This document shows positions 2,047 through 36,169 of a stretch of DNA of 64,000 nt, piece by piece (position 1 is the first letter of the stretch; each line of letters opens with the position of its first letter). The notes beneath the pieces are model-generated. The model had not been told where the DNA came from and did no database searches. It saw only the letters and a list, made by a program, of their open reading frames with translations. Where the stretch lies: assembly GCA_951812955.1 (NCBI GenBank), contig OX638340.1:2240001-2304000 (forward strand), written 5' to 3'. The DNA comes from an uncultured Gemmatimonadota bacterium (lineage in GTDB: Bacteria > JAAXHH01). Position numbers and translations under genes: made by a program.

Positions 2047-2118
2047 ATTCCAGCGCTTTGTCATCTTAAATCCACAGAATGCACGGAAAGGTACATATTC
2101 ACTCCCGATTCTGTTTAA

Positions 2119-3717: not shown

Positions 3718-4334
3718 ATGTAGTGCCCGCGTCCTTTCTCCGGCAGCACGTCGAAAATCAAGTGCACCCGTGGTTCGTTTGTCGGGTTTCTCGCTTCGTG
3801 CAGCGCCTTGTTGTCGAACACCCACAGCTCGCCTTCCCGCATCACTATGGTTTCACCTTCTGCGGTCATTGGACTCCCCTCCGGGCTCCTCAGCACAAGG
3901 TGGTATCGATCACGTATTCGGTAGTAAGCGCCGGCGTCGGTATGAGGTCGAACCCACCCCTGAGGTTGCAAGGATACCAGTGTAGCGCGTCCAAGTACAC
4001 CCCGATGAAGCGTGGCGATCTCTTTACAGAACGCCAGCGTTCGGGGGAATTTTCTAGCAGTAGCAGTAGTGCGACTGTCATGGACGTCGTTGGCGTTTTT
4101 CGCTCCTGGAGGCAGTGGTTTTTTAGCGGTACGCAGAAAGATATTTTGGGTGTCGCGTTGACAACGAACCTTGCGTTGCCGACTGGTATCGGCGAGCCAA
4201 AGATCTGGTACTGTGTCCAATTCCAGCATTAGCGGTTCAATATCGATGCCCGTCGCGATCCGGGTGAAACGCTTACCTGCCGGTGACACATCATTTGATT
4301 CTTTACCGGGAATCACATCGGTCTTGTGTATCAC
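3699..4334 (-). CDS. Aspartyl/asparaginyl beta-hydroxylase family Fe(II)/2-oxoglutarate oxygenase (AspH/LpxO/CinX-like)
   Basis: Strong similarity to the AspH catalytic core: GWVRPHTDAG..YHLVL aligns with the human THVWPHTGPTN..MHLGLVI, and GELWVFDNKALHEARN..RVHLIFDV aligns with GKVLIFDDSFEHEVWQ..RLIFIVDV. Both His ligands and the 2OG-binding Arg region are conserved. Confidence 0.85.
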   Translation of the reverse strand: MIHKTDVIPGKESNDVSPAGKRFTRIATGIDIEPLMLELDTVPDLWLADTSRQRKVRCQRDTQNIFLRTAKKPLPPGAKNANDVHDSRTTATARKFPRTLAFCKEIATLHRGVLGRATLVSLQPQGWVRPHTDAGAYYRIRDRYHLVLRSPEGSPMTAEGETIVMREGELWVFDNKALHEARNPTNEPRVHLIFDVLPEKGRGHYIYAPTE

Positions 4335-4469
4335 AAACGACCACCCTTACCGCCATATGCCAATGGGATTGATCAGCACCATCTCAGTATTCAACACAAG
4401 TAGTTACGTATGCTGGAGCCAGCTCAACAGGCCAGAAAGTACACGTTCGGTTAATCGAACAGCCATGAA

Positions 4470-5483
4470 TCAGTCGTCATCGTCGTCATCTTTATCATCG
4501 TCGTCATCGTCATCGTCGTCATCGTCGTCATCATCATCGCCGTCGCCATCCCCGTCACCATCCCCGTCGCCATCGCCATCGCCATCGCCGTCACCATCGC
4601 CGTCGCCATCCCCGTCTCCATCACCATCACCGTCGCCATCTCCATCACCATCGCCGTCACCGTCGCCATCCCCATCGCCGTCCCCATCTCCATCGCCGTC
4701 GCCGTTACCTCCAGAGTTCCCACTGGGCGGTGGACTTAACTCTTCATCGCCGTCGCCATCCCCATCGCCGTCTCCATCACCACTGGGCGGTGGACTTAAC
4801 ACTTCGTCACCGTCGCCATCCCCGTCGCCATCCCCGTCTCCATCACCGTCGCCATCCCCGTCTCCATCACCGTCGCCATCGCCATCCCCATCGCCATCGC
4901 CATCACCGTCGCCATCGCCATCCCCATCGCCATCGCCGTCACCATCCCCATCACCATCACCGTCGCCATCACCGTCGCCATCCCCGTCCCCATCTCCGTC
5001 GCCATCCCCGGCCCCGTCCCCATCGCCATCGCCGTCACCATCGCCGTCGCCATCCCCGTCTCCATCACCGTCCCCATCACCGTCGCCATCCCCGTCCCCA
5101 TCACCATCACCGTCACCATCGCCGTCACCGTCACCATCGCCGTCCCCATCGCCACCATTTGAACTTGTGGTATTTGTTACCACACTTGCGTTGTCCTCGT
5201 TATTGCTACCTGCATCCCCGTTCCCATCCCCATTTCCGTTCCTATCTCCATTTCCGTCACCATCTCCATCTCCATCGCCATCTCCGTCCCCGTCGCCGTC
5301 CCCATCGCCGCTGCCACCCGGACTCTGAGCACTCCCCACCTGATTCGCACTCGTGGCGAATCCAGACCCTGATCCCATGGGGTTCAGATCGTTGTCCCCT
5401 CTGCAACCCAGGATCATGAGCAACGAAGCGACAGTCAGTTGCATTCTTCGCAACCATTGCATAATGGTTCGGCACAAGGCCAT
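4470..5483 (-). CDS. Lipoprotein made almost entirely of Gly-Asp dipeptide repeats (about 125 GD units), with two short EVLSPPPSG/EELSPPPSG spacers and a C-terminal poly-Asp tail (D15-K-D6)
   Basis: Minus-strand frame has an N-terminal signal peptide with RR n-region and lipobox (..ASLLMILGC). The (GD)n tract is uninterrupted, 337 aa and in frame. The other frames of the same DNA give SP-repeat or HR-rich shadow ORFs without start context. It is on the same strand as the AspH-like gene, 135 bp upstream of it. Confidence 0.6.
   Translation of the reverse strand: MALCRTIMQWLRRMQLTVASLLMILGCRGDNDLNPMGSGSGFATSANQVGSAQSPGGSGDGDGDGDGDGDGDGDGDGNGDRNGNGDGNGDAGSNNEDNASVVTNTTSSNGGDGDGDGDGDGDGDGDGDGDGDGDGDGDGDGDGDGDGDGDGDGDGDGAGDGDGDGDGDGDGDGDGDGDGDGDGDGDGDGDGDGDGDGDGDGDGDGDGDGDGDGDGDGDGDGDGDGDEVLSPPPSGDGDGDGDGDGDEELSPPPSGNSGGNGDGDGDGDGDGDGDGDGDGDGDGDGDGDGDGDGDGDGDGDGDGDGDGDGDGDGDGDDDDDDDDDDDDDDDKDDDDDD
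4473..5320. repeat. Roughly 830-bp period-6 (hexanucleotide, GTCGCC/GTCACC/ATCGCC variants) tandem repeat tract, with an embedded 60-bp direct duplication (cactgggcggtggacttaac twice) and a 3' GAT/GAC homocodon run
   Basis: Read directly from the sequence between 4473 and 5320. The period is a multiple of 3, so slippage would preserve reading frame. Confidence 0.9.
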
Positions 5484-5817
5484 GGCACGCTACCTATTTG
5501 CCGGTTTGGAAATACAGTACAGGAGTGTTATTTGATTGTAATACGGAGCACACACAATCATGAGGAACCCTACCTTTGCCGTGACAGGCTATAGGGAACG
5601 TCACGGCAGACACAGATAGTAGGTAACGTTGTGTACCCTAAATAAAACCGGATTCCAGCTTGGATGTCAATGATTTAGACTTCAAGGTGATCACAAGACC
5701 TTTACATGACACAGTAATCCGTCCACTTTCGCCATTTCGATTCCTATCACAGCAACTAGGAATACGGCACCGCGGCGACAGTCCTGGCCTTGCATACACG
5801 GGTATATCAATCAGGTA

Positions 5818-6177
5818 CTAAGGCTTGTCGATCCAGACCGGATCCGGCGTGATGCTCGTCTCTGGCGGCGGCCCGGTATCGGTCCATTCTTCCTCGTTCT
5901 CGAGGAGGAATCCGGGTTCGACCGACATGTCGTGATCGCAGATGATCTGGCAGGACAACCGTACCTCGCCGACCAGCCCTTTCTCGGAAAGTACCGCGTG
6001 CTCGGCCTCGGTCATCGTGTCCGGCTCGCCCTCACTGATGGTCACCCGGCAGGTTGTGCACTTGGCGTTCCCACCGCACCGGTGGCCGATGTTCACCCCG
6101 GTGCCCTCGATAGCCAGTACCAGACGCTGCCCGGAATCGACTTCGTTCTCCACTCCGTTGACGGTAAGTTTCGGCAT
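5818..6177 (-). CDS. [2Fe-2S] ferredoxin, adrenodoxin/putidaredoxin type
   Basis: C-x5-C-x2-C ... C cluster ligands (HRCGGNAKCTTCRV ... LSCQIIC). 119 aa, the typical size for this family. Confidence 0.75.
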   Translation of the reverse strand: MPKLTVNGVENEVDSGQRLVLAIEGTGVNIGHRCGGNAKCTTCRVTISEGEPDTMTEAEHAVLSEKGLVGEVRLSCQIICDHDMSVEPGFLLENEEEWTDTGPPPETSITPDPVWIDKP

Positions 6178-7194: not shown

Positions 7195-8826
7195 TCAGGC
7201 CTCGTCCATGAAAGGATAGCGCCAGTCCGTCGGCGGGACCATAGTTTCCTTGATCGTCCGGGCGCTCATCCACCGCAGCAGGTTCATCGGACTGCCCGCC
7301 TTGTCGTTCGTTCCGGACGCCCGGGCGCCACCGAAGGGCTGCTGTCCGACGACGGCCCCGGTGGGCTTGTCGTTGACGTAGAAATTACCGGCCGAGTTGC
7401 GGAGCGCATCCGATATGCGGACGATGGCTTCGCGGTCCTGCGCGAAGACGGAGCCGGTCAGGGCGTAGGGTGACGTGCCGTCGCAAAGCGTAAGCGTATC
7501 TTCCAACTGGTCGTCTTCGTAAACGTAGATCGTGAGCACGGGACCGAAGATTTCTTCTTCCATGGTTTTGAAACGCGGGTTCGTCGTCACGATTGTCGTC
7601 GGTTCGACGAACCAGCCTCGCTCGCGGTCGCAAACGCCGCCCGTGATGATCTCGGCGTCATCCGCCGAACGGGCGTATTCGATGTGACCGGCGATGTTTT
7701 CGAAGGAGGCCTCGTCGATCACGGCCGCCATGAAGTTGGTGAAGTCTTCGGGATCTCCCATCTTGATCTGCGAAGCTTCCGCCGTGAACCGATCCCTGAA
7801 TGCCGGCCACAGGGAACGGGGAATGTACATCCGGGAGGCCGCGGAACACTTCTGCCCCTGGTATTCGAAGGCGCCGCGTACCGCCGCCGCGACGAGGGCT
7901 TCCACGTCCGCTGAGGCGTGGACGAAGATGAAGTCCTTCCCTCCCGTCTCGCCCACGATGCGAGGGTAGTGCCTCATGCGCTCAAGGTTGCCCGCCACCG
8001 TGCGGTACATCCGCTGAAAGGTCTCTGTCGAACCGGTGAAATGGATCCCTGCCAGATCCGGGCTGTTCAGCACCGGATCGCCCACTTCGGCCCCGGATCC
8101 CGGGATGAAGTTAATCACGCCGGGGGGCAAACCGGCTTCTTGCAGCAGCCGCATGACGTGCCACGCCGAATAAACGGCCGAGGATGCCGGCTTCCAGAGG
8201 ACCGAGCAGCCGGTCAGCGCCGGCGCCGTGGGCAGGTTGCCGCCGATGGCCGTGAAATTGAACGGGGTTACGGCAAAGACGAACCCCTCGAGGGCCCGGT
8301 ACTCCAGTCGGTTCCACACCCCGACAGAGGATGCCGGCTGGTCGCTCATGAGCTGCGCGAGGTAGCTGACGTTGAATCGCCAGAAATCGATCAGTTCGCA
8401 GGCCGAATCGATCTCGGCCTGGTAGATCGTCTTGGACTGGCCCAGCATGGTGGCGGCGTTGACCGTCTGGCGCCAGGGACCGGCCAGCAAGTCCGCCGCT
8501 TTCGCTATAACCGACGCCCGGTGCTCCCAGGGCATATCCGCCCACGCGGCGCGGGCTTCCAGGGCCGCATCGATCGCCATACGGACCTCGACCGCTCCCG
8601 CTTTGTGATAGACGCCGAGATCGACTGTGTGATCGTGAGGCGCCCGTAGCGGTGCCGTGTTACCCGTCTTCACTTCGCGCCCGCCGATGATCAGTGGGAC
8701 CTCGACAGGCGAGGATTTCAACTCACCGAGCTTCGCCTTGACGGCGGCTCGTTCGGCCGATCCGGGCGCGTAGTCCAGTACCGGCTCGTTGTAGGGCTGA
8801 GGCGGGTTGAAGCGTGCGTTGGCCAT
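7195..8826 (-). CDS. pruA: L-glutamate gamma-semialdehyde (1-pyrroline-5-carboxylate) dehydrogenase, aldehyde dehydrogenase superfamily
   Basis: Start chosen at MANARFNPPQPYNEPVLDYAPGSAER (ATG at 8826). The ORF track extends a further 44 codons to 8958 in an Arg-rich extension. The ALDH catalytic Cys region FEYQGQKCSAASR is present. Confidence 0.85.
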   Translation of the reverse strand: MANARFNPPQPYNEPVLDYAPGSAERAAVKAKLGELKSSPVEVPLIIGGREVKTGNTAPLRAPHDHTVDLGVYHKAGAVEVRMAIDAALEARAAWADMPWEHRASVIAKAADLLAGPWRQTVNAATMLGQSKTIYQAEIDSACELIDFWRFNVSYLAQLMSDQPASSVGVWNRLEYRALEGFVFAVTPFNFTAIGGNLPTAPALTGCSVLWKPASSAVYSAWHVMRLLQEAGLPPGVINFIPGSGAEVGDPVLNSPDLAGIHFTGSTETFQRMYRTVAGNLERMRHYPRIVGETGGKDFIFVHASADVEALVAAAVRGAFEYQGQKCSAASRMYIPRSLWPAFRDRFTAEASQIKMGDPEDFTNFMAAVIDEASFENIAGHIEYARSADDAEIITGGVCDRERGWFVEPTTIVTTNPRFKTMEEEIFGPVLTIYVYEDDQLEDTLTLCDGTSPYALTGSVFAQDREAIVRISDALRNSAGNFYVNDKPTGAVVGQQPFGGARASGTNDKAGSPMNLLRWMSARTIKETMVPPTDWRYPFMDEA

Positions 8827-9095
8827 GATCCATATGTACCCGCCGCGGGGCCGATGTGTCAACTGTTTTGTAGGCCTTCCATGCGGCTGGAGGATCGGCG
8901 AATCAACGGCCGTTGGACGAGCGGACAGACGGCGGACAGACACTGCCGGACGGGCCATTTTAGCCTTGCCAGATCCTGCGGGGAAATGAGATATTGAGGT
9001 TATAGGCCAAAGCCAGACACGCGAATCATAAGAGCAGGATCAACCAGGTTCGCGGCAGCCCAGGAATTGCAGCCGCCCGGACCGGAGGTACGGTC

Positions 9096-10184
9096 ATGAG
9101 CACCGATCAAGCTGACCAGGAACACGGCATCAAGGCGGTCAACCAGGAATTCACGCAATACGACCAGGTGAAGAAGGAACAGACCTACAACCTGGCCGAA
9201 GGCGCGGCGGAGGAGGAATTCGACGAGGAAACGCAGATCAGGACCTGCGACATGAACCTGTTCCATCACGGCGGACCGGAGGGCAAGGCGCAGTTCGCCC
9301 GGGACATCGGTGAGGCCATGGAGGGCATCGGTTTCGTGATCCTCGAGAACCATGAAATCCCGGCCAGCCTGTACGTCGAGGCCGAGCGCAAGGTAGCCGA
9401 GTTCTTCACGTCCACGCCTATAGCGGATAAGATGAGATACGAGGCCCAGCGGCACGGGTCGGTCAACCAGGGCTACTTCCCCATCAAGCAGACCAGCCGG
9501 ATGCATCCCGATCTCGTCGAGGGCTGGGTATTCTGCCGGCGGGCCTTCAACCTGGGCGAGAACCCGGACTACCGCGAAACGGACTACTGGCCCGCGACCG
9601 GATACGAACCCTTTTTCCGCCAGGTCATCCGGCATCACGAAGGTCTGATCCTGCCCCTCATGCAGAGCATCCTGGCCTATCTCGGCTGTGACTCGACAAT
9701 GTACGACGAGAAACTCACGCGAACGAACTTCGGCTTCCGGCTCAACTACTACCCGCCCATCACCCGGGAGGACGACGAGTCCGGCGCCGGACGCATGCTG
9801 GGCCATGAGGACGTGGACCTGTTCACCATCCTGCCCTCCCACGGGGTGGATGGCCTGCAGGTGCTCAACCGCGAAAACATGAAGTGGATCCGCCTCAATC
9901 CGCCCGAGGGCAGCATCATCATCAACACCGGCGACTACATGCAGCGGATCACCAACGACCGCCTTCCTTCCACCACGCACCGTGTCAGCAAGCCTATCGA
10001 CACCAGTCTCTACGAATCGGCCCGCATCAGCATTCCCATGGCCGTATACGTCTGGGAGGAAGAAATGCTCGAGGTGCTGCCCAACACGGGCGAGCCCAAG
10101 TACGAACCCATCTCCGCCGTCCAGTTCCACACCCGGACCACGAGCAAGTACTACGGCGACGATTATGCGGTGGATGATGATTGA
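9096..10184 (+). CDS. 2-oxoglutarate/Fe(II)-dependent oxygenase, isopenicillin-N-synthase-like (DIOX_N + 2OG-FeII_Oxy) family
   Basis: HxD...H facial triad (GHEDVDLFTILP ... STTHRV) with the DSBH core GLQVLNRENMKWIRLNPPEGSIIINTGD. Confidence 0.75.
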   Translation: MSTDQADQEHGIKAVNQEFTQYDQVKKEQTYNLAEGAAEEEFDEETQIRTCDMNLFHHGGPEGKAQFARDIGEAMEGIGFVILENHEIPASLYVEAERKVAEFFTSTPIADKMRYEAQRHGSVNQGYFPIKQTSRMHPDLVEGWVFCRRAFNLGENPDYRETDYWPATGYEPFFRQVIRHHEGLILPLMQSILAYLGCDSTMYDEKLTRTNFGFRLNYYPPITREDDESGAGRMLGHEDVDLFTILPSHGVDGLQVLNRENMKWIRLNPPEGSIIINTGDYMQRITNDRLPSTTHRVSKPIDTSLYESARISIPMAVYVWEEEMLEVLPNTGEPKYEPISAVQFHTRTTSKYYGDDYAVDDD

Positions 10185-10380
10185 CGGGGACTGTTGAATC
10201 GAAATGGCTGATTCGATGTGGACGACGACTGACTAAATCGGGGCAGAAGCGGACCCTCTTCGAGCATTCGGAAGGTCGACGACCGAAGACGAAGCGATAA
10301 TACGTCTGTCGGCCACCCAGCGGCCCGCGAATGACCACCCGTGGTAGACGACGACAGGCGGGATCCAGGAAAGGCTAAGC

Positions 10381-11136
10381 ATGACTCCCCACGAAAGATA
10401 CCTCTTCGACCTGCAGGGTTTTATCGAGGTCCCGGACGCGTTGGACGCCGGGCAGCTCGCAGAACTGAACGGCATACTGGACGAGAAGATCGACGGGGCC
10501 ATGGCACCCGGCGCCACCACCCACCGATTCGGCTTCACCCTGCTCGACTGGGGACCAACCTACCGGGAACTGATCGACAATCCGCGGATAGATCCTTATC
10601 TGGAACAACTGATCGGTCCGAAGTACCGGCTGGACCACGATTATGCCGATATCATCCGAAAAGGCGACGGTCCAATCGGCACGACCCTCCACGGAGGCGC
10701 CATCCCCTTCGACCCCCTCTACTCCTACACCTGCACCAACGAAGAGATCCGTTGCGGCCTGACTGTGGTCGCCTACTACCTGAAGGACGTAAATCCAGGC
10801 GACGGCGGATTCGGCTGCGTGCCCGGCAGCCATAAGAGCAACTTCCGGTTCCCGGACGAGTGGCGCAACCTCAAGACCGACCAGCCCTTCATCCGCGCCG
10901 TAACCGGCAAGGCCGGCACCGCCGTCATATTCACCGAGGCCCTGACCCACGGCACCATGCCCTGGCACGGTGACGAGCGCCGCACCCTCTTCTACAAGTA
11001 CTCGCCCAATTCGATATCCTGGTACGCGGAATACTATGACGCCGACCGGTACGAAGGTCTGACGGAACGGCAGCAGGAGATCCTTGAGGCACCGAACGCG
11101 CGGTATGGAGAACGGTCTAAGCGTGGGGTTGTGTAG
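10381..11136 (+). CDS. Phytanoyl-CoA dioxygenase (PhyH) family protein
   Basis: N-terminal ERYLFDLQGFIEVPDALDAGQL, typical of PhyH-family proteins. 251 aa. Confidence 0.65.
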   Translation: MTPHERYLFDLQGFIEVPDALDAGQLAELNGILDEKIDGAMAPGATTHRFGFTLLDWGPTYRELIDNPRIDPYLEQLIGPKYRLDHDYADIIRKGDGPIGTTLHGGAIPFDPLYSYTCTNEEIRCGLTVVAYYLKDVNPGDGGFGCVPGSHKSNFRFPDEWRNLKTDQPFIRAVTGKAGTAVIFTEALTHGTMPWHGDERRTLFYKYSPNSISWYAEYYDADRYEGLTERQQEILEAPNARYGERSKRGVV

Positions 11137-11214
11137 GTGGGCTTTACGGATAGACCAGTTGATATTACGACCACATTTATTTGCTCATTGATTTACTGTA
11201 TCTCGAGGTTACAA

Positions 11215-11505
11215 ATGGACGTTAAGGAAGCCGTAAGTACGGCCATAAAACATATTGCAGATGTATACTCGGAAGAGGGAATCTCGCATATTGGATTAGA
11301 AGAGGTAGAATACGACGAGATTAACTCACAATGGAACGTGACCGTTGGATTTGCACGTAAGTGGGACTTCCCTACTCCGGTTCTTATCCCCGTATTACCT
11401 TCACCAAGACCAAACCAAAGAACCTACAAAATCGTAGTAATTCGTGATAGAGACAAGAAGGTCACCGCAATGAAGATAAGGGATTTAGCTACGTCGAATG
11501 AATAG
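11215..11505 (+). CDS. Small hypothetical protein, possible cognate partner of the downstream PIN protein. First gene of the lower-GC insert.
   Basis: ATG with AGG Shine-Dalgarno about 8 nt upstream. The ORF track starts at a GTG at 11137, immediately after the PhyH stop. The 3' end overlaps the PIN gene by 8 nt. No recognisable antitoxin fold. Confidence 0.4.
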   Translation: MDVKEAVSTAIKHIADVYSEEGISHIGLEEVEYDEINSQWNVTVGFARKWDFPTPVLIPVLPSPRPNQRTYKIVVIRDRDKKVTAMKIRDLATSNE

Positions 11506-11968
11506 TGTGCTTATAGATACGAATCTACTTGTCCTTTTGGTTGTAGGATCTACCGATAGAGAGTTTATTAGTCGACATAAACGCACAAAATCGTTCATAC
11601 CCAGAGACTATGACGAACTGACACGTCTGTTGTCGGGATCTCGTGAGTTATGGGTTACTTCTCACTGTCTGGCAGAGACATCGAATCTTCTGAAGCAAAC
11701 CGATAAAACAAAAGCACAGATCTTGTTACATACTCTTGCGGCCTACTGCGATATTGCCCGCGAATCGCATATTCCCAAAGAGACGGTATTTGGATACGAG
11801 AACTACCGCAGACTTGGCGTCACCGACACCGGCTTCATATACTCATCCGAAACAGTCTCTCGATCTATAACAGTAGATTTCAACTTGTACATCGAACTGA
11901 GTAACCTTGGCAGAGAAGTGATAAACTTCCACCACATCCGTGCTTCGTATCTCCAGAATGTCGATTGA
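11498..11968 (+). CDS. PIN-domain protein (VapC-like putative RNase toxin)
   Basis: N-terminal MNSVLIDTNLLVLL is the hallmark PIN start. 156 aa. Located in the lower-GC island. Confidence 0.6.
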   Translation: MNSVLIDTNLLVLLVVGSTDREFISRHKRTKSFIPRDYDELTRLLSGSRELWVTSHCLAETSNLLKQTDKTKAQILLHTLAAYCDIARESHIPKETVFGYENYRRLGVTDTGFIYSSETVSRSITVDFNLYIELSNLGREVINFHHIRASYLQNVD

Positions 11969-12089
11969 CACGACGATCACACAGTTTTGCACATTCCAGT
12001 GCTTAGTTTTTGGTCAAGACCAACCTGTAGTTAAAACCAACCAATGGCCCTGAAGAAATCCCAAAATTTGGTAAACACTGCCAGGAGAG

Positions 12090-13034
12090 ATGCCACCTAT
12101 GCTTGACGAATTGGTTGGATGTATCGATGAACTTAAAGATCGTATTTCCAAATACCGAAACTCACTAAATGAGAACGAAACTCGTACTCGAATGCAGTTA
12201 ATAGATCCGCTGCTTCGTGTGCTGGGCTGGGACGTCTCCGATCCACGGTACGTTATCCCAGAATTCAAGGTGTCCGATGGTTGGGCTGACTATGCCTTAT
12301 TGCGGGATGATGGTAAGCCTGCTGCTATGGTGGAAGCTAAAAAACTGGACGAACCGTTAAAGCCCGCACACCGTGCTCAGATGTTGAAATACGCAATTGA
12401 GTTGGGTATCCCATACACTGGTTTGACAGATGGAAATCACTGGGAGTTGTACAATGTTTTCCAACCGGTACCTATGGAGGACAAACAGATCTTGGATGTT
12501 ACTTTATTGGATTCCCACTCCCACGAAAGTGCACTAAAGTTACTGCTGCTCTGGAATCCAAATCTAGACGCCGGCAGCGCGGTGAAAGCAAATGAACCTG
12601 TTCTCGTCGACACTCAGAATGGCGGTTCGATTCCTCCAATAATCGTTCCGCCACCATCGAACTGGAAGGCACTTTCAGATTACGAACCACCAGCAGGAAC
12701 ACCCGCACCTAAGGCTATTAGGCTTTGGGATGACTCAGAAAGAGAAGTGCATCATTGGTATGAAATTCTCACCATAGTAGCCGAAAAGCTCTACAACGAA
12801 AATGTCCTTACATTGGAACATATACCGATTCAATGGGCTAAAAAGACCTATAGTATTCACTCTCAACCAGTACATCCGACCGGCAACAAGTTTGAAAATC
12901 ATAAAGAAATCGGTAACTCGGGATTGTTCGTAAACGTAAATTTAAATACCGGTCAAGTACGAAATAACACCCGGAATCTACTGAAGAAATACAACATTGG
13001 TACAGAGAAGGTTTACCTCAAGGTAGCCGATTAG
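12090..13034 (+). CDS. Stand-alone type I restriction enzyme HsdR N-terminal-like (PD-(D/E)xK nuclease) domain protein with an uncharacterised C-terminal half
   Basis: NETRTRMQLIDPLLRVLGW ... DGWADYALL ... AAMVEAKKLDE matches the HsdR_N motif (ETRT..IDP.L..LGW, D...EAK). Confidence 0.6.
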   Translation: MPPMLDELVGCIDELKDRISKYRNSLNENETRTRMQLIDPLLRVLGWDVSDPRYVIPEFKVSDGWADYALLRDDGKPAAMVEAKKLDEPLKPAHRAQMLKYAIELGIPYTGLTDGNHWELYNVFQPVPMEDKQILDVTLLDSHSHESALKLLLLWNPNLDAGSAVKANEPVLVDTQNGGSIPPIIVPPPSNWKALSDYEPPAGTPAPKAIRLWDDSEREVHHWYEILTIVAEKLYNENVLTLEHIPIQWAKKTYSIHSQPVHPTGNKFENHKEIGNSGLFVNVNLNTGQVRNNTRNLLKKYNIGTEKVYLKVAD

Positions 13035-13444
13035 GTAGTTTCGTTGACCTACCATGTTGAGGAGTGATATTTCTTGATCTCCACAGACAAGGTTAAGGGT
13101 AAACCACAGCATACCTCCTCACTATCAGGCACGGTTCCTCAGTACGTTGAAGCGATATCAGCAACTCGCTAGCTAGCAGCTACCTGCCCCGTCGCATGGA
13201 ATACTGGGTACAAACCGTCTTTCACTTTAGTGGCGATTTGTTCACGGCTCCGTTCGTCAAATACAATTGAGCCCACTAATTCCACCTGTTTACCTCGACA
13301 AACAAGAGTACAGATCAATCACTTCGTATGACAAAACTCATTCAACTTCTATTCGAAATTGGAATCGGTGACCACCACTCAACCTCTGAATCGTGTGAGA
13401 CTGATGAAGATTCGCTGGTACATGGAAAGGATAATGGAGTGTAA

Positions 13445-15622
13445 TTGATGAATTCAACGTCTGAAGAAACCACCACCCGTCCCTGTTGGTTTGTGGGCGC
13501 CAGTTATTCTGGTACGGGCGATCAAACTGAGCGATTTCTCACGGAAGGTATCTGGGAGAACGGCTTCGACAACGATCATCCGGCCGTCGCGATGACCAAA
13601 ACCATTCAGCCCGGAGACCCAATCGCGATCAAGTCCGCCTACGTTCGCAAACACGACCTACCTTTTGACAGTCGCAACCAGTTCGTATCCGTAATGGCGA
13701 TCAAGGCCATCGGGACGGTTTTAGAGAACATCGGTGATGGCCATACCGTTAAGGTTAAATGGAATAAGGAGGTAACTCCGCGAGAATGGTATTTCTTTAC
13801 TAACAGAGGTACAGTTTGGAAAGTATCGCCTGGTAGTGACTGGTATTCCGACGCCCTGATCGGATTCGCGTTCGAGAACAAGCCGCAGGATATCGATCGT
13901 TTCTTAAAAGTGCCGTATTGGAGGGAGAGGTATCGAGGAGACACGCTCAATGATCAACGGTTTGCGTGGACGAGGTTCTACGAGGCCTTTGCGGATAAGC
14001 TGCTCACATATAGGAACAAGCGCTTAGACTTAATAAATGGTATACAAGAAATAGCTGCCAGAGAGTATGCCATGTTGGTTCTGAGGGATCAGTTTCGGGA
14101 CGGTACGATCGGTCCACTCAAAGACATATGCCCATTTACTACCATCGGATTGTTCAATAAGGGAATAACGAATAGCAATCGAAGATCAATTGCATCAGAA
14201 CTCGCTGAATTGCTGGGAGTGTCAGAGTCGGTTCCGGATTCATTCGATGGAATACCTGTTCTCAACAATCAGAATTCCTGGTTTTTTTCGTATGAAAAAA
14301 ACCGACGACCGGAAGATATTGAAATCCTTTGGAATGTTTACTCCCGTGCAATTGCCTTCGCTGATTCAGATGATTCCGATGCGCGATCTGCTTTCGTCTC
14401 TGCTTACGACGACGCATCCGAGGTTTCTCACGTAGGTTGGAAACTTACATTTGGGCTGTATTGGATACGGCCTTGGGATTTCCCCGTCCTCGACACGAAT
14501 ACCCGGCGTTACCTGGACAAGAAACTCAATATTGAGATCGGACTAAATGGACCGAAAAGGGGATACTGTAGTGCGAACGACTACCTGACGGTCCATGACA
14601 CACTTGAAAAGAGGTTTCTGGAGGACACATATCCGGTTCGTTCTTTTCCAGAACTAGCACGCGAAGCCTGGTTGTATAAGCCCGGTGACCCGGATCCCCC
14701 GCCAGATAGCGGTCTGGATCCCCCGCCACCACCTGTCCCTTATTCACTCGATGATATCGTGAAAGACGGCTGTTTCATTGCCAGAGATAAACTCGAGTCG
14801 ATACTCAATCGACTCCGTACCAAGAAAAACCTCATTCTACAAGGCCCTCCAGGAACCGGGAAGACTTGGCTCGCCAGGAAGTTGGCCTACGCTTTGATCT
14901 GTGAGCGAGACGAAAGCAAGGTTCGTTCGGTACAGTTCCATCCCAATCTCTCTTACGAAGATTTCGTACGTGGTTGGCGGCCGGCGGGAGATGGTAAACT
15001 TACGCTCGTAGATGGCCCCTTCATCGCCATAAGGGACGAGGCCGAAAAAGATCCTACTACTCGATACGTCTTGGTCATCGAAGAGATCAACCGGGGCAAT
15101 CCCGCACAGATTTTCGGCGAGATGCTGACATTGTTGGAGACCGACAAGCGAACTCCAGACGAAGCCTTGGAATTGGTTTATTCAAAGACTCCGGATGAGC
15201 GATTCTTTGTTCCTAACAATCTGTTTGTCATCGGGACGATGAACATTGCTGATCGTTCACTGGCACTTGTAGACCTGGCATTACGCCGTAGATTTGCATT
15301 TATCGATCTGGAACCTACCCTTGGCAAGACTTGGCGAGACTGGGTCCATTCTAAAAACGGGATAGATAACGAGACTCTCACCGAAATTGAGCATCGTATA
15401 GATGATCTGAACCGGACGATCTCCAATGATTCCGGTCTTGGCTCGCAATTTCGCTTGGGGCACAGTTATGTGACGCCGCCGTTTGAACAGCCGATTAAAG
15501 ATGGGAGAAAGTGGTACAGGGAAGTCGTTGAAACGGAAATTGGACCACTACTCGACGAATACTGGTTCGAAGACCTCGCGAAATCTAGAAACGCAAAAAA
15601 GAAACTTTTGGATGGTTTTTAG
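13445..15622 (+). CDS. mcrB: McrB-family AAA+ GTPase (5-methylcytosine-specific restriction subunit homolog) with a long (about 440 aa) divergent N-terminal region
   Basis: McrB signatures are present: ILQGPPGTGKTW (Walker A), FHPNLSYEDFVRGWRP, VIEEINRGNPAQIFGE (NxxN GTPase motif), FVIGTMNIADRS and ALRRRFAFIDL. Confidence 0.85.
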   Translation: MMNSTSEETTTRPCWFVGASYSGTGDQTERFLTEGIWENGFDNDHPAVAMTKTIQPGDPIAIKSAYVRKHDLPFDSRNQFVSVMAIKAIGTVLENIGDGHTVKVKWNKEVTPREWYFFTNRGTVWKVSPGSDWYSDALIGFAFENKPQDIDRFLKVPYWRERYRGDTLNDQRFAWTRFYEAFADKLLTYRNKRLDLINGIQEIAAREYAMLVLRDQFRDGTIGPLKDICPFTTIGLFNKGITNSNRRSIASELAELLGVSESVPDSFDGIPVLNNQNSWFFSYEKNRRPEDIEILWNVYSRAIAFADSDDSDARSAFVSAYDDASEVSHVGWKLTFGLYWIRPWDFPVLDTNTRRYLDKKLNIEIGLNGPKRGYCSANDYLTVHDTLEKRFLEDTYPVRSFPELAREAWLYKPGDPDPPPDSGLDPPPPPVPYSLDDIVKDGCFIARDKLESILNRLRTKKNLILQGPPGTGKTWLARKLAYALICERDESKVRSVQFHPNLSYEDFVRGWRPAGDGKLTLVDGPFIAIRDEAEKDPTTRYVLVIEEINRGNPAQIFGEMLTLLETDKRTPDEALELVYSKTPDERFFVPNNLFVIGTMNIADRSLALVDLALRRRFAFIDLEPTLGKTWRDWVHSKNGIDNETLTEIEHRIDDLNRTISNDSGLGSQFRLGHSYVTPPFEQPIKDGRKWYREVVETEIGPLLDEYWFEDLAKSRNAKKKLLDGF

Positions 15623-16743
15623 TGGTGAATGGCCCAGTAGTTAGTACGGCTGACGAGACGATCGAACAGGCCGGGTATATCGGTCGTATCCCTTTACGAA
15701 ATATCTGGCTGCTCATGCTTTACGCCTCTGACCTTTTCAGGCAACTTGATGCGTCTGAATACCGCTCCTTCGAAGATAATCCTGATGACCTGCCCGATCT
15801 GGTTGCCGAGATCCTATCACATGAAGTCGAACGTCGACTAAAGCGAAATCTGAGTTACGGCTACCAATACCGTAACGAAGTGCTCGGACGGGTTCGCGGA
15901 CGTATCGACCTTTTACAAACCGAAGCTCATCAACTACTGCAACGCGGCATGGTCGCCTGTCGATTCGACGAACTGACAATCGACACACCGAGGAACAGGT
16001 ACGTTCGATCCGCCCTCGAGATGATATCCAAATATGTTCGTCGAAAAGACCTGGCTCACCAGTGCAGGTCCCTCGTTGGAAGCCTTAGGCGACAGGGAGT
16101 CGTTGGAGAACGACCTGGGCGTGAGGTGACGTCAGTTGAGCGATACGGTAGACATGACGCTGTTGACCGCAAGATGGTGGATGCGGCTCGTCTTGCCTTC
16201 GAAATGGCCATTCCGACCGAGCAGACCGGTTCCAGGCACCTTCCACTACCGGACCGTGATATAAACTGGATTCGCAGACTCTATGAGAAAGGCGTTGCAG
16301 GATTCTATGATGTGGTACTTTCCAGAAGGGGATGGAATGTGTATCCGGGAACGATTCTCAGATGGCCCACGACAGTCAGAAGTCCGCGAATAGACGGGAT
16401 ACTACCCTCCATGCGGACCGATATTGTGTTGGATCATGTTGACGAAGGCCGACGGATCGTTATAGACACGAAATTCAACTCGGTTTTGTCGAGAGGTTGG
16501 TATCGAAATGAAGGGATACGAAGCGGATACATGTACCAGATCTATGCTTACCTTAGGTCGCAGGAAGAGAGTGGTGATCCGCTTGATTGTAATGCAGAGG
16601 GAATGTTTCTCCATCCGTCGGTTGGTGAGATGTTCAACGAATGGGTAGATATTCAGGGTCATCGGATCCACTTCAATACCGTTGATCTCGCAACCGATAC
16701 ACAGACCATCAGATCGCAGTTGTTGGATGCGGTGAAACCTTAA
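15622..16743 (+). CDS. mcrC: McrC-family nuclease subunit
   Basis: GTG start overlapping the mcrB stop (TAGTG), 373 aa, C-terminal PD-(D/E)xK-like IVLDHVDEGRRIVIDTKF. Position immediately after mcrB supports the call. Confidence 0.7.
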   Translation: MVNGPVVSTADETIEQAGYIGRIPLRNIWLLMLYASDLFRQLDASEYRSFEDNPDDLPDLVAEILSHEVERRLKRNLSYGYQYRNEVLGRVRGRIDLLQTEAHQLLQRGMVACRFDELTIDTPRNRYVRSALEMISKYVRRKDLAHQCRSLVGSLRRQGVVGERPGREVTSVERYGRHDAVDRKMVDAARLAFEMAIPTEQTGSRHLPLPDRDINWIRRLYEKGVAGFYDVVLSRRGWNVYPGTILRWPTTVRSPRIDGILPSMRTDIVLDHVDEGRRIVIDTKFNSVLSRGWYRNEGIRSGYMYQIYAYLRSQEESGDPLDCNAEGMFLHPSVGEMFNEWVDIQGHRIHFNTVDLATDTQTIRSQLLDAVKP

Positions 16744-16834
16744 ACTGACTTTGCTCTCGACATAGTCGTTCCACCAGCCCATTTCCCGCATCCGTTTGGT
16801 GTGTTCGGCAGCTTCGGTAATCTCAAGATTTGAC

Positions 16835-17761
16835 TCACCCCGCCTTCCTGAAGACCTCGAAACGACGGTCCAGCCGGTCCTGGTCCGGATGGTCACGGGT
16901 GCGTGAAGGCAGGTGCAGTCCCGATCCGTCCAGTTGCTTGAGGGCCTGGAGCATGGGACCGTCATCCTTGTCCAGCAGGCGGTCGGATACGTGCAGCCGG
17001 TAGTCGGGATCAATGCCGATCAGGTGGGCGTCAAAGGCCGCATGATGAATCTTGGACAGGGCCAAGCCGTTGGGTACGACGGGTTGTCCCAATGCCTCGT
17101 CGCCATCGGCAATGATGTGGGCGGCATCCAGTAACTGCGTTTCCGGTAGGCCGGTAATGGCACAGCGGCCGCGATAGGCGTGAAGGACAGCCTCGCGGAA
17201 CGTGGCTTGGTGGAGTCGTTCCTTGACCATGCGCAGGGCATACCGCCGCTCTACCGCGTTAATCGGAGCTTCCATCTCGGCCTGGTTGGGGTTCCCAAAG
17301 GCAAGCGTGGACTTGAGCGCGAATCCATCCCAATTGGAGATGAAGGTGGGAATGATCGCCTGATACCGGCTGGGAGACACACCGAGAAAGTAGATCACGG
17401 GAATCTGATTCTCCCAGGCAACCTTTAACCACTGGTTGTCTGCTGCTGCCGGGTCCTGTCCCATGAAGGCGTAGTCCACGGAATCGTTGCCCTCGAAAAT
17501 CTGGCTGTGGACCTGCTTTTGGTCGTCGTACCAGACTCGGCCGCCCGGTCTGGGGTACACGGTCCTGATCGAGAGAAGGTACCGCATCCGGCGCGGCTTG
17601 AATATGCCCCGCTGCGGATTGACAAGGGGGATCCTTTCGCCTTCGAATACGAACCCCGGCGCCAGTTCGTCCCTCGTAAGGTGGCCATGGGTTTCACTCA
17701 GCCGCCGCACGTGATCGAACGCGGCCATCCGCATCCTCGGATCTCGGTCGTCGACGTTCAT
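16835..17761 (-). CDS. HNH_2-family endonuclease with an N-terminal putative DNA-modification reader domain (type IV restriction-like)
   Basis: C-terminal YRGRCAITGLPETQLLDAAHIIADGDE ... NGLALSKIHHAAFD is the HNH_2 pattern (C..TG...L.AAHI.P ... NGL.L....H..FD). Confidence 0.7.
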   Translation of the reverse strand: MNVDDRDPRMRMAAFDHVRRLSETHGHLTRDELAPGFVFEGERIPLVNPQRGIFKPRRMRYLLSIRTVYPRPGGRVWYDDQKQVHSQIFEGNDSVDYAFMGQDPAAADNQWLKVAWENQIPVIYFLGVSPSRYQAIIPTFISNWDGFALKSTLAFGNPNQAEMEAPINAVERRYALRMVKERLHQATFREAVLHAYRGRCAITGLPETQLLDAAHIIADGDEALGQPVVPNGLALSKIHHAAFDAHLIGIDPDYRLHVSDRLLDKDDGPMLQALKQLDGSGLHLPSRTRDHPDQDRLDRRFEVFRKAG

Positions 17762-17770
17762 CTCAGTCCT

Positions 17771-18787
17771 TTACCCCCGGTAAATCCTCTCATTGTGCCA
17801 GGATAGTACTTCGGTGGACGGCTGGTCCACCGCATTCCTGGGAACGACAATCTGTTTCCCGTGCAAAGAGTAGTAATCGCGCCCGTTCTCGAATTCCTCC
17901 CGGACCTGTCCGCTGACCTCGAAGTGCAATTCAGGGGTCACCGTTACGTATCCGGAATCGAACAGCCCGTGGATGTCGCGCCTTAGCAGCAGTCCGTTCC
18001 TGGCTTCGTGGATGCCCCCTTCGCTGTAGGGACGGATGTGCGCGGCATCAAGGGCCGGCAGCGTCCGTTCGCGGGTAACTGCGCAACGGCGGTCGTAAAG
18101 GTCGGTTACCAGGGCCCTGAAAGCACCTTGACCGAGACGCGGTTTGACCAGTTGCGGTTTGCCGTAAAGGGTTTGCCCGGCCAGGAGGCCTGAGGGTTCG
18201 GCCACGATGCCGGCAGGATTTGCAGATACACTGGTTGGCTGTCGGAATTCCAAACGGCCGTTGACTGCGTCCCACAATGCCCGTCCGTCTGAGTCACCGG
18301 TACTAAATGTCTTTAGTGACACGATGTTCGGCGACCATGTCGACGGCACATCGACAAACTCGGATGCCTCGAAGAAGAAGGGTTGGGTAAGGATCCGGCA
18401 GCCAATCTTGTAATCGCTCGGCTCACGTGGGTCAACATTACGGTAACGTGAGATACGATTTCGCATTTCCTGCAATGTCTCGGCACCGTTGGCTTCCCCG
18501 AATGCTTCCCATGCAAGGGAACAAGGCATCACATTGGCATAGGCAAAAACGCCGCCGCCAACGATTACGTTGTACGGCGCGTGTAGCTTGAAGAGGAACA
18601 GTTCACCGGGCTGAAGTGCCTTGAAGTTCGTGCCAGAAGGCGCCCAGAAGTTGACCTCCTCCAGGTGCGGCTTCTGCCGGAGAGTCTTGAACCAGTCCCC
18701 GTCGGTCACGGCAACGACCAGCTTGATGTCCATAGCGCGAATTCCGGTAAACTTTGGTGCTATTGGGATACAGGCAGATCCGATCAA
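17771..18787 (-). CDS. HNH_2-family endonuclease with an N-terminal PUA/EVE-like beta-barrel domain (type IV restriction-like)
   Basis: C-terminal RRCAVTRERTLPALDAAHIRPYSEGG ... NGLLLRRDIHGLFDSGYVTV. N-terminal KLVVAVTDGDWFKTLRQ..VNFWAPSG..GELFLFKL resembles PUA-like modified-base readers fused to nucleases. Confidence 0.7.
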   Translation of the reverse strand: MIGSACIPIAPKFTGIRAMDIKLVVAVTDGDWFKTLRQKPHLEEVNFWAPSGTNFKALQPGELFLFKLHAPYNVIVGGGVFAYANVMPCSLAWEAFGEANGAETLQEMRNRISRYRNVDPREPSDYKIGCRILTQPFFFEASEFVDVPSTWSPNIVSLKTFSTGDSDGRALWDAVNGRLEFRQPTSVSANPAGIVAEPSGLLAGQTLYGKPQLVKPRLGQGAFRALVTDLYDRRCAVTRERTLPALDAAHIRPYSEGGIHEARNGLLLRRDIHGLFDSGYVTVTPELHFEVSGQVREEFENGRDYYSLHGKQIVVPRNAVDQPSTEVLSWHNERIYRG

Positions 18788-19076
18788 CGGACAACCGCAA
18801 CCGTGCGTCTCGCTGATCGAGCCTTATCATCTAAAATAAAAGACGGCAACCATGGCAGGTCAAGTGCCGCCTGTGCGACCCGGTTTTTGACGTTTGGAAC
18901 ACAGAACGAGTGCTTCCAGATTGCCTTGACCAAATGTACCTGTTAGTTTACTGAACGTTGGTACACTTGATCTCATAAGTTATCAGGAGATTACGAGCGA
19001 GTAGTGAAAGGAACGATTCATATCTTATGTTGTGTAATTTAAATCATATATCGGAAATAGTACATAGGGGAGTTGT

Positions 19077-19274
19077 GTGGTGAATAGTAACTCAAAAGAT
19101 AATAACGAACGGCGATCGCCGATAAAAACCGCCAAACATGACAACTCGAGTGACGAAAACAATCCCCCAGCCAACCTGGCGGAAGCGATACGCGCCCGTT
19201 TTGCACCGTTGGGTGGGATAGAACTGGATCTTCCGCCACGCGAACCCATGCGCGAACCGCCCGAATTCAAATAA
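19077..19274 (+). CDS. Possible degenerate RHH/VapB-like antitoxin remnant: only a C-terminal tail (AEAIRARFAPLGGIELDLPPREPMREPPEF) is retained
   Basis: The C-terminal motif resembles the toxin-binding tails of FitA/VapB antitoxins. The N-terminal half is low-complexity and has no RHH. It lies in an AT-rich intergenic patch with no adjacent toxin. Confidence 0.25.
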   Translation: MVNSNSKDNNERRSPIKTAKHDNSSDENNPPANLAEAIRARFAPLGGIELDLPPREPMREPPEFK

Positions 19275-19359
19275 TGAGAACGCATTAGCGCTGACTGGAA
19301 ACTGTCCCATATGAACCCGGCAATTCCGCACTGGTAATCCAACCAACAAAGGACACCCC

Positions 19360-20754
19360 ATGCCCCCGATCGACATCGGCTCACGCCGCGAGCTCTTTGT
19401 AGACTCATTTCTGATCGACACCCTCACGGACGCCCACCAACATCTTCACGAACCCGTTCTAAAGGAGACGGTATTCCGCGTAGAGGAACCTCTGGAGAAC
19501 GCCTGTACGGGTTGCTACAACCTGGTACAGACAGACGGCAAAGTCCTGGTGTATTACCGCGGCTATCACCCCACGGGCAAACACGAGGATCTGCCCGAGG
19601 GTTGGGCGGAAACGCAGACGACAAACCTGCTGGTCAGCGATGACGGCATCCACTTCGAACGGCCGAACCTGGGCCTGGTGGAAGCGGAAGGTTCGAAGGA
19701 CAACAACATCCTCGTCCGGGGCCGCGAGGCACATAACTTCTGCGTCTTCCTGGACGGCAATCCGGAAGTGGCGCCCGATCAGCGTTTCAAGGCCGTCGGT
19801 GGAGAAGGCAGGGACAGTCTCTTCGGTTTCACTTCATCCGACGGATTGACCTGGAAACCGGTGCAGGACGGTCCCCTCGCGATCACGGGCGCCTTCGACT
19901 CGGTGAACGTGCCCCTTTGGGACGACTACGCGGGTTGCTACCGCCTCTTCAGCCGGTACTTCGAACAGACGGGGGAAGACGGCGTCGGGGTCCGGGCAAT
20001 TCAGAGCTGCACCTCGGAGGATTTCATCCACTGGACCACGCCCGAACATCACGTGTACGGCGAAGGCGTCCCGTTCGAGCACTTCTACACCAACGCCACC
20101 ACGCCATGCCCTGGCGCGGAACACATCCTGCTGTCCTTTCCCATGCGGTTCGTGCCGGAACGGACGAAGGACATCAAGGGCATGGATTACCCCGGGGGCG
20201 GCGTGTCCGACGCTATATTCATGTCGAGTCGGGACGGCGTCCACTGGGACCGGAGTTTCATGGACGCCTGGCTGCGCCCGGGCCTGGAAAAGCGCAACTG
20301 GACGCACCGCAACCAGACGCCGGCCGCGGGAATCGTTCCGACAGCCCCGGACGAATGGTCGATGTACGTCGCCGAGCATTACGGATGGGACACCAACGGC
20401 GTGAGGCGGGTGACCGTCCGTCCCCACGGTTTCGCCTCCGTCCGGGCAGGCTACTACGGTGGCGAACTGTTTACGAAACCCCTGACCTTCACCGGATCGA
20501 CGCTGTATATCAACTACTCGGCGTCCGCCGTGGGCGCCGTGTCCGTGGAGATTCAGGATACGGAAGGTCGAGCCTTGGAGGGATTTGCGGCAAACGACAT
20601 GGATCCCCTGTTCGGCGACGACCTGGACGCCCCGATTACGTGGAAGGGCTCCGACGGTCTGAATGGCCTGAACCGGCTGAACGGTGTGCCGGTCCGCCTG
20701 CGGTTCATCCTGAAGGACGCCGATCTCTTCTCGATCCGTTTCGGAGATTCCTGA
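19360..20754 (+). CDS. Hypothetical 464-aa protein, possibly a beta-propeller glycoside-hydrolase-like fold
   Basis: Long ORF with good coding statistics and no definitive motif recognised. Confidence 0.45.
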   Translation: MPPIDIGSRRELFVDSFLIDTLTDAHQHLHEPVLKETVFRVEEPLENACTGCYNLVQTDGKVLVYYRGYHPTGKHEDLPEGWAETQTTNLLVSDDGIHFERPNLGLVEAEGSKDNNILVRGREAHNFCVFLDGNPEVAPDQRFKAVGGEGRDSLFGFTSSDGLTWKPVQDGPLAITGAFDSVNVPLWDDYAGCYRLFSRYFEQTGEDGVGVRAIQSCTSEDFIHWTTPEHHVYGEGVPFEHFYTNATTPCPGAEHILLSFPMRFVPERTKDIKGMDYPGGGVSDAIFMSSRDGVHWDRSFMDAWLRPGLEKRNWTHRNQTPAAGIVPTAPDEWSMYVAEHYGWDTNGVRRVTVRPHGFASVRAGYYGGELFTKPLTFTGSTLYINYSASAVGAVSVEIQDTEGRALEGFAANDMDPLFGDDLDAPITWKGSDGLNGLNRLNGVPVRLRFILKDADLFSIRFGDS

Positions 20755-36003: not shown

Positions 36004-36169
36004 TCCCAGATATGGCAGGCCAGTTCAATGCAGGGTGAAGCAGCCGGCGATCCGACTGTTGCCATTGCGCCCGAAGCCGGATCTGCGTGACCGGCGTCAG
36101 TTGGAACTACTTCGGCAATAAATAGTCCGCCAGAACATCGAGGTCGATTGGGGCGTCCCGCCCTAATTC

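Follow-up and report, generated by a model that had tools for sequence, protein, structure and literature searches.

Genes and base composition of the locus

The 64-kb window analysed here (contig OX638340.1, positions 2,240,001 to 2,304,000) contains, downstream of a PhyH gene (10381-11136), a stretch of low GC content carrying a toxin-antitoxin-like pair, a stand-alone HsdR_N-type nuclease gene and mcrBC, followed by two HNH_2 nuclease genes (Table 1). The original prediction, made from the sequence of the window, had described this stretch as an island of defence genes inserted directly after the PhyH stop codon and ending at about 16760. Positions below are those of the window, and other loci used for comparison are given L numbers.

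Table 1. Features between PhyH and the conserved 464-aa gene
Feature	Coordinates	Strand	Description
Small open reading frame (ORF), candidate antitoxin	11215..11505	+	96 aa; conserved partner upstream of the PIN-like gene
PIN-like protein, candidate toxin/ribonuclease	11498..11968	+	156 aa; family beyond Pfam coverage
Stand-alone HsdR_N-type PD-(D/E)xK nuclease	12099..13034	+	311 aa; Pro-rich linker; ~130-aa C-terminal domain
mrr 3'-end remnant	13334..13441	+	36 codons; directly upstream of mcrB
McrB	13448..15622	+	~430-aa N-terminal region fused to McrB AAA+ GTPase
McrC	15622..16743	+	373 aa; start overlaps mcrB stop by 1 nt
HNH_2 nuclease 1	16835..17761	-	308 aa; convergent with mcrC; ~180-aa N-terminal region
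HNH_2 nuclease 2	17771..18787	-	338 aa; paralogous to nuclease 1 in the HNH region only
Likely ribbon-helix-helix antitoxin gene remnant, C-terminal part	19077..19274	+	Right edge of the variable region

Computed over the window DNA, the GC content of 11137-16760 is 0.474, against a mean of 0.602 (standard deviation 0.045) in 219 500-bp windows outside 11137-19300, none of which falls to the mean of the island. Among 5.6-kb segments of the 64 kb, GC is lowest in the one starting at 11101, and the runner-up that does not overlap it has a GC content of 0.567. In 100-bp steps both edges are sharp, one at approximately 11100 (0.58 to 0.45) and the other at approximately 16750-16800 (0.51 to 0.59). 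GC at third codon positions (GC3) is similarly non-uniform, with values of 0.43-0.52 in the five island genes, the small ORF having a value of 0.43, and 0.78-0.84 in the Aldedh, 2OG, PhyH and 464-aa genes. Hence both the predicted fall in GC between 11137 and about 16750 and the foreign composition of the stretch are borne out, although the level to which GC returns is about 0.59-0.61 rather than the 65% first proposed. A second low-GC gap is found at 18791-19359.

The limits of the region had to be revised. The first ORF was thought to begin at the base following the PhyH stop, but the GTG at 11137 is a mechanical call; homologues use the ATG at 11215, which is preceded by GAGG. On the right, the variable block extends beyond the proposed limit of about 16760 to approximately 19150, and therefore includes the two HNH_2 genes, which had been omitted from the inventory of defence genes.

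That inventory was correct in naming McrB and McrC, both identified by Pfam and NCBIfam matches. McrC scores 395.5 bits against the NCBIfam equivalog cut-off of 338 and matches Pfam McrBC (E = 2e-22). McrB matches Pfam AAA_5 (E = 4e-27) and, over residues 432-722 (the last ~290 aa), the NCBIfam McrB model at 257.8 bits, the full-length cut-off of 637 not being reached because the N-terminal region differs from the model. The motifs GPPGTGKT (Walker A), VLVIEEINRG (Walker B) and MNIADRS (NxxD), as defined in PMC11090510, can be read in the translation. Judged by its genes, this McrBC is a canonical type IV system of the E. coli-like branch. As in E. coli K-12, mcrB lies upstream of mcrC, the stop and start codons overlap, and Walker A, Walker B and NxxD motifs are present; the system departs from K-12 in the N-terminal region of about 430 aa, for which neither the E. 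coli methylcytosine-binding domain (DUF3578/ADAM) nor any solved structure gives a match. For residues 1-432 no Pfam, PHROG or PDB match was obtained, and none of the known specificity-domain types (ADAM/DUF3578, EVE, YTH) was matched, while precomputed Pfam annotation lists DUF8425 and McrB_lid for the McrB homologues in L001, L002, L168 and L169. McrB would be expected to bind modified DNA through this N-terminal region, to form a GTP-driven AAA+ ring and to recruit the McrC nuclease. The E. coli-like branch was often found beside other restriction systems in a published census (PMC11090510), a statement matched by the layout of L165, where a type I HsdR lies upstream.

The small ORF and the PIN-like gene overlap by 8 nt, and an identical overlap is found in L085, L173 and L174, in which the ORF preceding the PIN-like gene is 47-62% identical to that of the window. 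The contexts of the pair are unrelated, lying between carbamoyl-phosphate synthase genes in L173 and beside ilvD in L174. The product of the small ORF falls into no Pfam, PADLOC, NCBIfam or PHROG family and has no recognisable DNA-binding antitoxin domain, and the PIN-like protein has no direct match in Pfam, PADLOC, NCBIfam, PHROG or PDB. The earlier designation of a 'PIN pair' consequently stands on indirect support in place of a profile match: within a family of 2169 representative clusters, an alignment reveals D7, E60, D110 and D127 to be invariant or nearly so, and four of 41 members give weak matches to PIN, PIN_9 or PIN_3 (E = 5e-4 to 7e-3). Two small, co-oriented, overlapping genes that move together in L085, L173 and L174 have the layout of a type II toxin-antitoxin system, and the pair can be regarded as a candidate toxin-antitoxin-like cassette. 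It resembles PIN modules of the VapBC type in the small upstream ORF overlapping a gene of ~155 aa by 8 nt, in the four conserved acidic residues and in the presence of the cassette inside unrelated operons, but differs in that neither protein of the window reaches the Pfam PIN or antitoxin models.

HNH_2 nuclease 1 matches Pfam HNH_2 (E = 5e-11) and the PADLOC HNH model PDLC04132 (E = 1.6e-28). HNH_2 nuclease 2 likewise matches Pfam HNH_2 (E = 4e-12), and its residues 210-284 match the 'HNH endonuclease' of PDB entry 6yex (E = 4.5e-7). Both genes have a host-like GC content, with GC3 values of 0.74 and 0.65, respectively. The C-terminal HNH_2 region is shared with PUA/EVE-HNH enzymes (such as 6yex) and with phosphorothioate (PT) restrictors of the ScoMcrA type. 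The differences from these lie in the N-terminal regions of 180-210 aa, for which profile and PDB sequence searches matched no known reader domain, and in NCBIfam PT-DNA_restrict scores of 55-58 bits against a cut-off of 180 (54.6 bits in nuclease 1, over its C-terminal part only). HNH_2 nuclease 1 is likely to be a stand-alone type IV-like nuclease, and both would be of a nuclease type that occurs in modification-dependent enzymes. Beyond them, the translation of 19077-19274 ends ...NLAEAIRARFAPLGGIELDLPPREPMREPPEFK and is presumably of FitA/VapB type; this block is conserved upstream of the 464-aa gene in L084, L002 and L086.

Probable exchange of cassettes between related loci

The same neighbourhood was studied in eleven related contigs. 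One of these, L002, has flanks 81-91% identical to the window and carries a protein named by NCBI as that of a Gemmatimonadetes metagenome-assembled genome (MAG), to which, probably a sponge symbiont, the host of the window is closely related. The right flank is constant wherever a contig reaches it, comprising the 464-aa gene, VTT_dom, DUF547 and Redoxin genes and, further on, MutS. On the left, the flank consists of Aldedh-2OG-PhyH in some contigs and of an AddB/AddA-like pair in others, the latter being found in L001, L005 and L088. As L086 has PhyH followed by AddBA, these alternatives represent one ancestral order.

The content between the flanks varies considerably. In the window it comprises the small ORF and PIN-like gene, the HsdR_N-like nuclease gene, mcrBC and two HNH_2 genes. 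The closest relative, represented by L084 and L085 and 89-97% identical in its flanking DNA, retains only the small ORF and PIN-like gene after PhyH, the window being longer by about 7 kb, from the PIN-like stop codon to the conserved block upstream of the 464-aa gene. L002 and L168 show the reverse pattern, with the HsdR_N-like gene and mcrBC present and the toxin-antitoxin-like pair and HNH genes absent; in L002, approximately 170 bp still resemble the beginning of the pair. Other relatives hold further combinations: the HsdR_N-like gene, mcrBC and two HNH_2 genes in L001; an Eco57I-like methyltransferase, a frameshifted PstI-like nuclease, the HsdR_N-like gene and mcrBC in L005; a full-length Mrr, McrBC and two HNH_2 genes in L088; a type I HsdR, a YgjP-like peptidase, the HsdR_N-like gene and mcrB in L165; and a FitA-like antitoxin, a PIN gene, a transposase fragment, the HsdR_N-like gene, mcrBC and an HNH_2 gene in L169. 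L086, which lacks mcrBC, has a low-GC DnaJ-domain gene and a 94-aa gene. HNH_2 nuclease 1 itself occurs in L001, L088 and L169, whereas L002, L005, L168 and L084 lack it.

Sequence identities are similarly discordant. Relative to L088, nucleotide identity is 97-99% in mcrB and 96% in mcrC, falling to 84-85% in the HNH genes, 85% in the 464-aa gene and 80-83% in the flanks. Relative to L001, it is 82-88% in the HsdR_N-like, mcrC and HNH genes, 69% in the McrB N-terminal region and 82% in the 464-aa gene. Conversely, the flanks of L084, although 89-97% identical, enclose no mcrBC. This incongruence with the flanks implies that mcrBC, and separately the specificity region of mcrB, have been exchanged between lineages, and it points to a recent exchange of the McrBC block; plain vertical inheritance does not account for this, and nor does a single insertion event. 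The pair tells a comparable story, its proteins being 62-65% identical to those of L085 (65% for the PIN-like protein), a locus without mcrBC whose flanks match at 89-97%. It is a conserved cassette of toxin-antitoxin layout that is resident even in the closest relative.

These observations have to be set against the proposal that a single low-GC island, containing the PIN pair, nuclease and McrBC together, was inserted in one event after the PhyH stop. Such an event would account for GC being uniformly low over 11137-16760, with sharp edges, and for five closely spaced genes on the same strand. Nevertheless, it appears very improbable, because the comparison with relatives gives no single empty site but the pair by itself in one lineage and the opposite arrangement in two others, because McrBC and its neighbouring genes have such different identities to L088, because the pair proteins are so diverged from those of a relative with almost the same flanks, and because the mrr remnant upstream of mcrB, discussed below, shows a separate and later insertion of the nuclease gene. 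The low-GC stretch is instead best described as a mosaic of separately exchanged defence cassettes in a variable hotspot, at least four modules having separate histories, to which a probability of about 0.75 can be attached. Weighing against this description is the retention of low GC in all the relatives, which would fit an old acquisition that has ameliorated little as well as repeated replacement from a low-GC pool.

As originally noted, there is no tRNA gene in the 64-kb window and no integrase domain among the window ORFs scanned with Pfam, PADLOC and NCBIfam. Direct or inverted repeats at the flanks are short and at chance level, so that the locus has none of these three marks of an integrase-mediated island, and nothing above chance was found among Rfam families, promoters or terminators. 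Several remnants are present: the mrr 3' end and antitoxin fragment of the window, the frameshifted PstI-like gene of L005, the transposase fragment of L169 and a 2.4-kb insertion into mcrB in L143 point to repeated recombination and deletion at the hotspot. The region from 11137 to about 19150 would thus be a variable defence hotspot between PhyH (AddAB in some relatives) and the conserved 464-aa gene, in which cassettes most likely came, went and replaced one another by recombination through neighbouring cassettes and the conserved flanks, with local illegitimate deletions added and without the involvement of site-specific integration.

The 'immigration control region' of E. coli consists of hsdRMS-mrr-mcrBC. 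It is similar to the present locus in that several restriction nucleases are clustered at one variable site between conserved core genes, a likeness that extends to the related contigs, which also include type I and type II systems and differ in content even between close relatives. It is unlike this locus in its host lineage and gene set, lacking both the toxin-antitoxin-like pair and a nuclease of the HsdR_N/SeqA-like kind.

Within mcrB, the N-terminal region (13448-14737) is 67-69% identical at the nucleotide level to L001, L002, L168 and L169, whereas the ATPase part and mcrC are 80-85% identical; the same region is 99-100% identical to L088, L143 and L165. This pattern looks like allele swapping or diversifying selection acting on the specificity region. 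In L143, whose copy is otherwise 98-100% identical to the window module, a 2.4-kb segment (2368-4768) splits the N-terminal region at the equivalent of window position ~14035; its ORFs of 313 and 292 aa may belong to a mobile element.

Variation is also evident elsewhere. A second variable segment lies at 2045-5827, about 3.8 kb of which has no counterpart in L002, where its flanks adjoin directly, while in L084 its position is taken by another segment, of 2.7 kb, that carries a 2OG-FeII_Oxy_5 gene. The segment has a GC content of 0.55-0.57 and a strongly negative GC skew (-0.24 to -0.29) over 4001-6000; it contains an ORF without a Pfam match at 2119-3717 (532 aa) and, on the minus strand, one with a weak TrAA12-like match at 4470-5483. 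Further patches of lower GC (0.50-0.56) at 53256-55859 (minus strand), 35000-37000 and 48000-49000 contain, one apiece, an 867-aa MacB/FtsX-type permease, a MarR-family regulator with small unassigned ORFs, and a 170-aa ORF without a family. In L086, 7090-9284 holds the 94-aa gene and the low-GC gene (0.43-0.49), which encodes a 617-aa protein whose sole match is a DnaJ domain; this is possibly another defence cassette.

The stand-alone nuclease and its linkage to McrBC

The nuclease ORF opens at 12090 (314 aa), and its likelier start is the second ATG, at 12099, which has AGGAG upstream and matches homologues of 311 aa that begin MLDELV. Exact-sequence look-ups retrieved no record of this nuclease or of the PIN-like protein. 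An AlphaFold2 model (pLDDT, the predicted local distance difference test score, of 82) shows two domains, between which runs a disordered Pro-rich linker. The N-terminal domain gives a marginal match to Pfam HSDR_N (PF04313; 25.3 bits against a cut-off of 25.1) and a PDB profile match to HsdR 3h1t (E = 6e-4), and Foldseek aligns it with the type IIG enzymes DrdV and BpuSI as well as with type I HsdR 3h1t (E = 4e-4 to 7e-4). All 33 aligned homologues share D67, E82-x-K84 and Q97-x3-Y101 without exception, so that the catalytic site can be called intact; a QxxxY motif is the mark of HsdR nuclease domains. The N-terminal 140 aa also match the phage family phrog_4225 ('endonuclease', profile length 357, E = 1.5e-14), and phages therefore encode relatives of the nuclease domain too.

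For the C-terminal domain, sequence searches of Pfam, PADLOC, NCBIfam, PHROGs and the PDB yielded no usable direct match. Its predicted structure folds confidently in isolation, and the nearest structural match is the C-terminal DNA-binding domain of SeqA, which binds hemimethylated GATC. The fold score is non-significant (Foldseek E = 0.44-1.9) and sequence similarity to SeqA is undetectable. On the basis of the predicted structure, the domain is probably DNA-binding. The two-part architecture proposed originally, an HsdR_N-type PD-(D/E)xK domain with a separate C-terminal extension, is therefore upheld, with the size of the second domain reduced from 180 to ~130 aa. This full architecture is not described in any of the curated libraries searched, and neither fusions of SeqA-like domains to nucleases nor a link between SLED and SeqA was found in searches of the literature.

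The protein belongs to a large family, with 1298 homologous clusters at E <= 1e-3, of which the best 120 are nearly all full-length (~310-320 aa), and more than 50 invariant positions spanning both domains. It is present in at least 490 species-representative genomes, mostly MAGs named Dehalococcoidia, Entotheonella, Latescibacterota, Bryobacterales or Rhodothermales; these names, from which alone the habitat is deduced, are typical of sponge symbionts and suggest such an origin. The GC content of the gene is on average about 6 points lower than that of its flanks across 83 loci. Six recurrent neighbours were annotated: an acetyl-CoA synthetase, a HicB-like gene, Usp, a luciferase-like monooxygenase, a PIN gene and the small partner upstream of the PIN gene, which matches no family. 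No methyltransferase is among these six, and Pfam, PADLOC and NCBIfam scans of 7195-20754 found no methyltransferase or specificity gene there either, in agreement with the original description of the nuclease as unpartnered. An ancestral pairing of the nuclease with PhyH, which lie side by side in the two distant genomes L036 and L041, was considered and taken as coincidence, as the PhyH proteins there share only 38-41% identity and other genes follow downstream.

The match to HSDR_N, weak matches to type I and type IIG enzymes in profile and PDB sequence scans, and the complete type I hsdR just upstream in L165 could be taken to indicate a decayed hsdR fragment that has lost its motor domains along with hsdM and hsdS. 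At 311 aa, with no helicase domain and no HsdM/HsdS-type gene in 7195-20754, the protein is not a type I HsdR as it stands. Decay is extremely unlikely to explain it, given the consistent length and conservation of both domains throughout the family, and a C-terminal domain that folds by itself and is unrelated to superfamily 2 (SF2) motor domains.

The nuclease gene and mcrB are separated by approximately 410 bp, at the end of which stands the mrr remnant, which is 64% identical to residues 329-364 of the L088 Mrr (tblastn, E = 8e-6), a protein composed of two HARE-HTH domains and Mrr_cat. A full-length Mrr lies directly upstream of an McrB of the same type in L088 and at least nine other metagenomic loci, further copies being cut by contig ends. 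The remnant here, together with the intact gene at that slot elsewhere, indicates that Mrr-McrB-McrC is the ancestral order. The nuclease gene was then inserted upstream of mcrB, removing all but the last 36 codons of mrr.

The association of the nuclease with McrBC was assessed from both sides. Adjacent mcrBC is found in only one of the 80 best loci of the nuclease family (L005), the remaining 79 being without it. Of 80 metagenomic loci whose McrB shares this N-terminal region, the 62 with at least 1.5 kb of upstream sequence were counted; the nuclease is found in two, both near-identical to the window, and is missing from 60. In a neighbour-joining tree all the McrBC-linked copies of the nuclease form one clade, which rules out repeated independent association and implies that the linkage reflects one historical event.

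It had been suggested that the nuclease may work with McrBC. In its strongest form this would make it a third component of a three-gene type IV system, for example an additional nuclease or a sensor that the McrB ring would recruit. Consistent with this, the order HsdR_N-like, McrB, McrC is found in the window, L001, L002, L005, L143, L165, L168 and L169 with differing left neighbours, and low GC is common to the nuclease gene and mcrBC. However, a three-component system seems improbable given the single origin of the linkage, the rarity of either partner beside the other, the nearly identical McrBC of L088 with a full Mrr in place of the nuclease, and the presence of a dead gene fragment before mcrB in the window and of another fragment there in L005. 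It follows from the one-clade linkage, the displacement of mrr and the two surveys that the suggested cooperation is not supported, and the nuclease is most likely an independent module acting alone, with a small chance of cooperation with McrBC. A point on the other side is that, within the clade, the nuclease has remained beside McrBC with order and orientation kept through ~46% protein divergence and in several left contexts; this adjacency could reflect a functional tie as well as co-inheritance.

The fragment in L005 (11167-11721, between the nuclease gene and mcrB) is coding sequence with a phosphatase signature of the HCxxGxxR type (VHCKGGLGRAG), as read from an alignment.

Possible function of the nuclease and significance of the locus

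The lone nuclease is tentatively read as a stand-alone and possibly modification-dependent (type IV-like) endonuclease, a reading that falls short of even odds, in which it would act on its own with the C-terminal domain reading DNA. It has in common with single-chain enzymes of the DpnI, PvuRts1I and Mrr types the combination of a PD-(D/E)xK domain with a small separate domain and the absence of a methyltransferase among the annotated recurrent neighbours; its gene also occupies the slot of an Mrr gene. It departs from them in having a catalytic domain of the HsdR_N or type IIG kind, and a second domain that is neither a winged helix nor SRA and is nearest, with modest scores, to SeqA. The SeqA-like fold, the lack of an annotated methyltransferase neighbour and the Mrr slot are modest evidence for modification dependence. 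The fuller proposal, that this is an undescribed large family of stand-alone modification-dependent nucleases with a SeqA-like reader of methylated DNA (possibly N6-methyladenine), which replaced mrr at this locus, is possible but doubtful.

The main alternative is that the protein is a toxin-like or housekeeping DNA nuclease, involved in repair or recombination or serving as an effector of the toxin-antitoxin type, and not a restriction enzyme. A HicB-like or winged helix-turn-helix gene lies ~30 nt upstream of the nuclease gene in 27 loci, mostly from Dehalococcoidia (e.g. L018 9542-9976), and a small ORF and bona fide PIN gene are found directly downstream in approximately 20 loci (e.g. L007 10960-11666). 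Furthermore, a neighbourhood of acetyl-CoA synthetase and Usp is conserved in 37 loci, suggestive of long vertical inheritance. Across these 27-37 Dehalococcoidia loci, the apparently vertical conservation of acetyl-CoA synthetase, the HicB-like gene and Usp counts against a role in defence, as a housekeeping or toxin function fits it just as well. On the other hand, the depressed GC of the gene relative to its flanks is expected of mobile or defence genes, the gene displaced is the Mrr restriction gene, the catalytic domain is closest to those of restriction enzymes and the C-terminal domain resembles a methyl-DNA reader. Taken together, a toxin or housekeeping function is considered unlikely. 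As an observation in its own right, the HicB-like and PIN neighbours, which occur away from the McrBC-linked clade, hint that members of this family tend to be located among genes resembling toxin-antitoxin systems.

Much of what is found at the locus, namely McrBC, HNH nucleases, a toxin-antitoxin-like pair and low GC, is ordinary for a defence island. The locus is nonetheless a well-documented case in which related bacteria have exchanged defence genes one cassette at a time, down to the single gene, without an integrase, and the mrr remnant gives the direction of one replacement event. The DUF8425 N-terminal region of McrB, presumed to be a specificity domain, is worth experiment. So is the family of HsdR_N-type nucleases with a SeqA-like domain, which is potentially new and is common in the MAGs surveyed; if the nuclease does read DNA methylation, it would represent a new combination of reader and nuclease among type IV enzymes, and possibly a new reagent for the mapping of DNA modifications.

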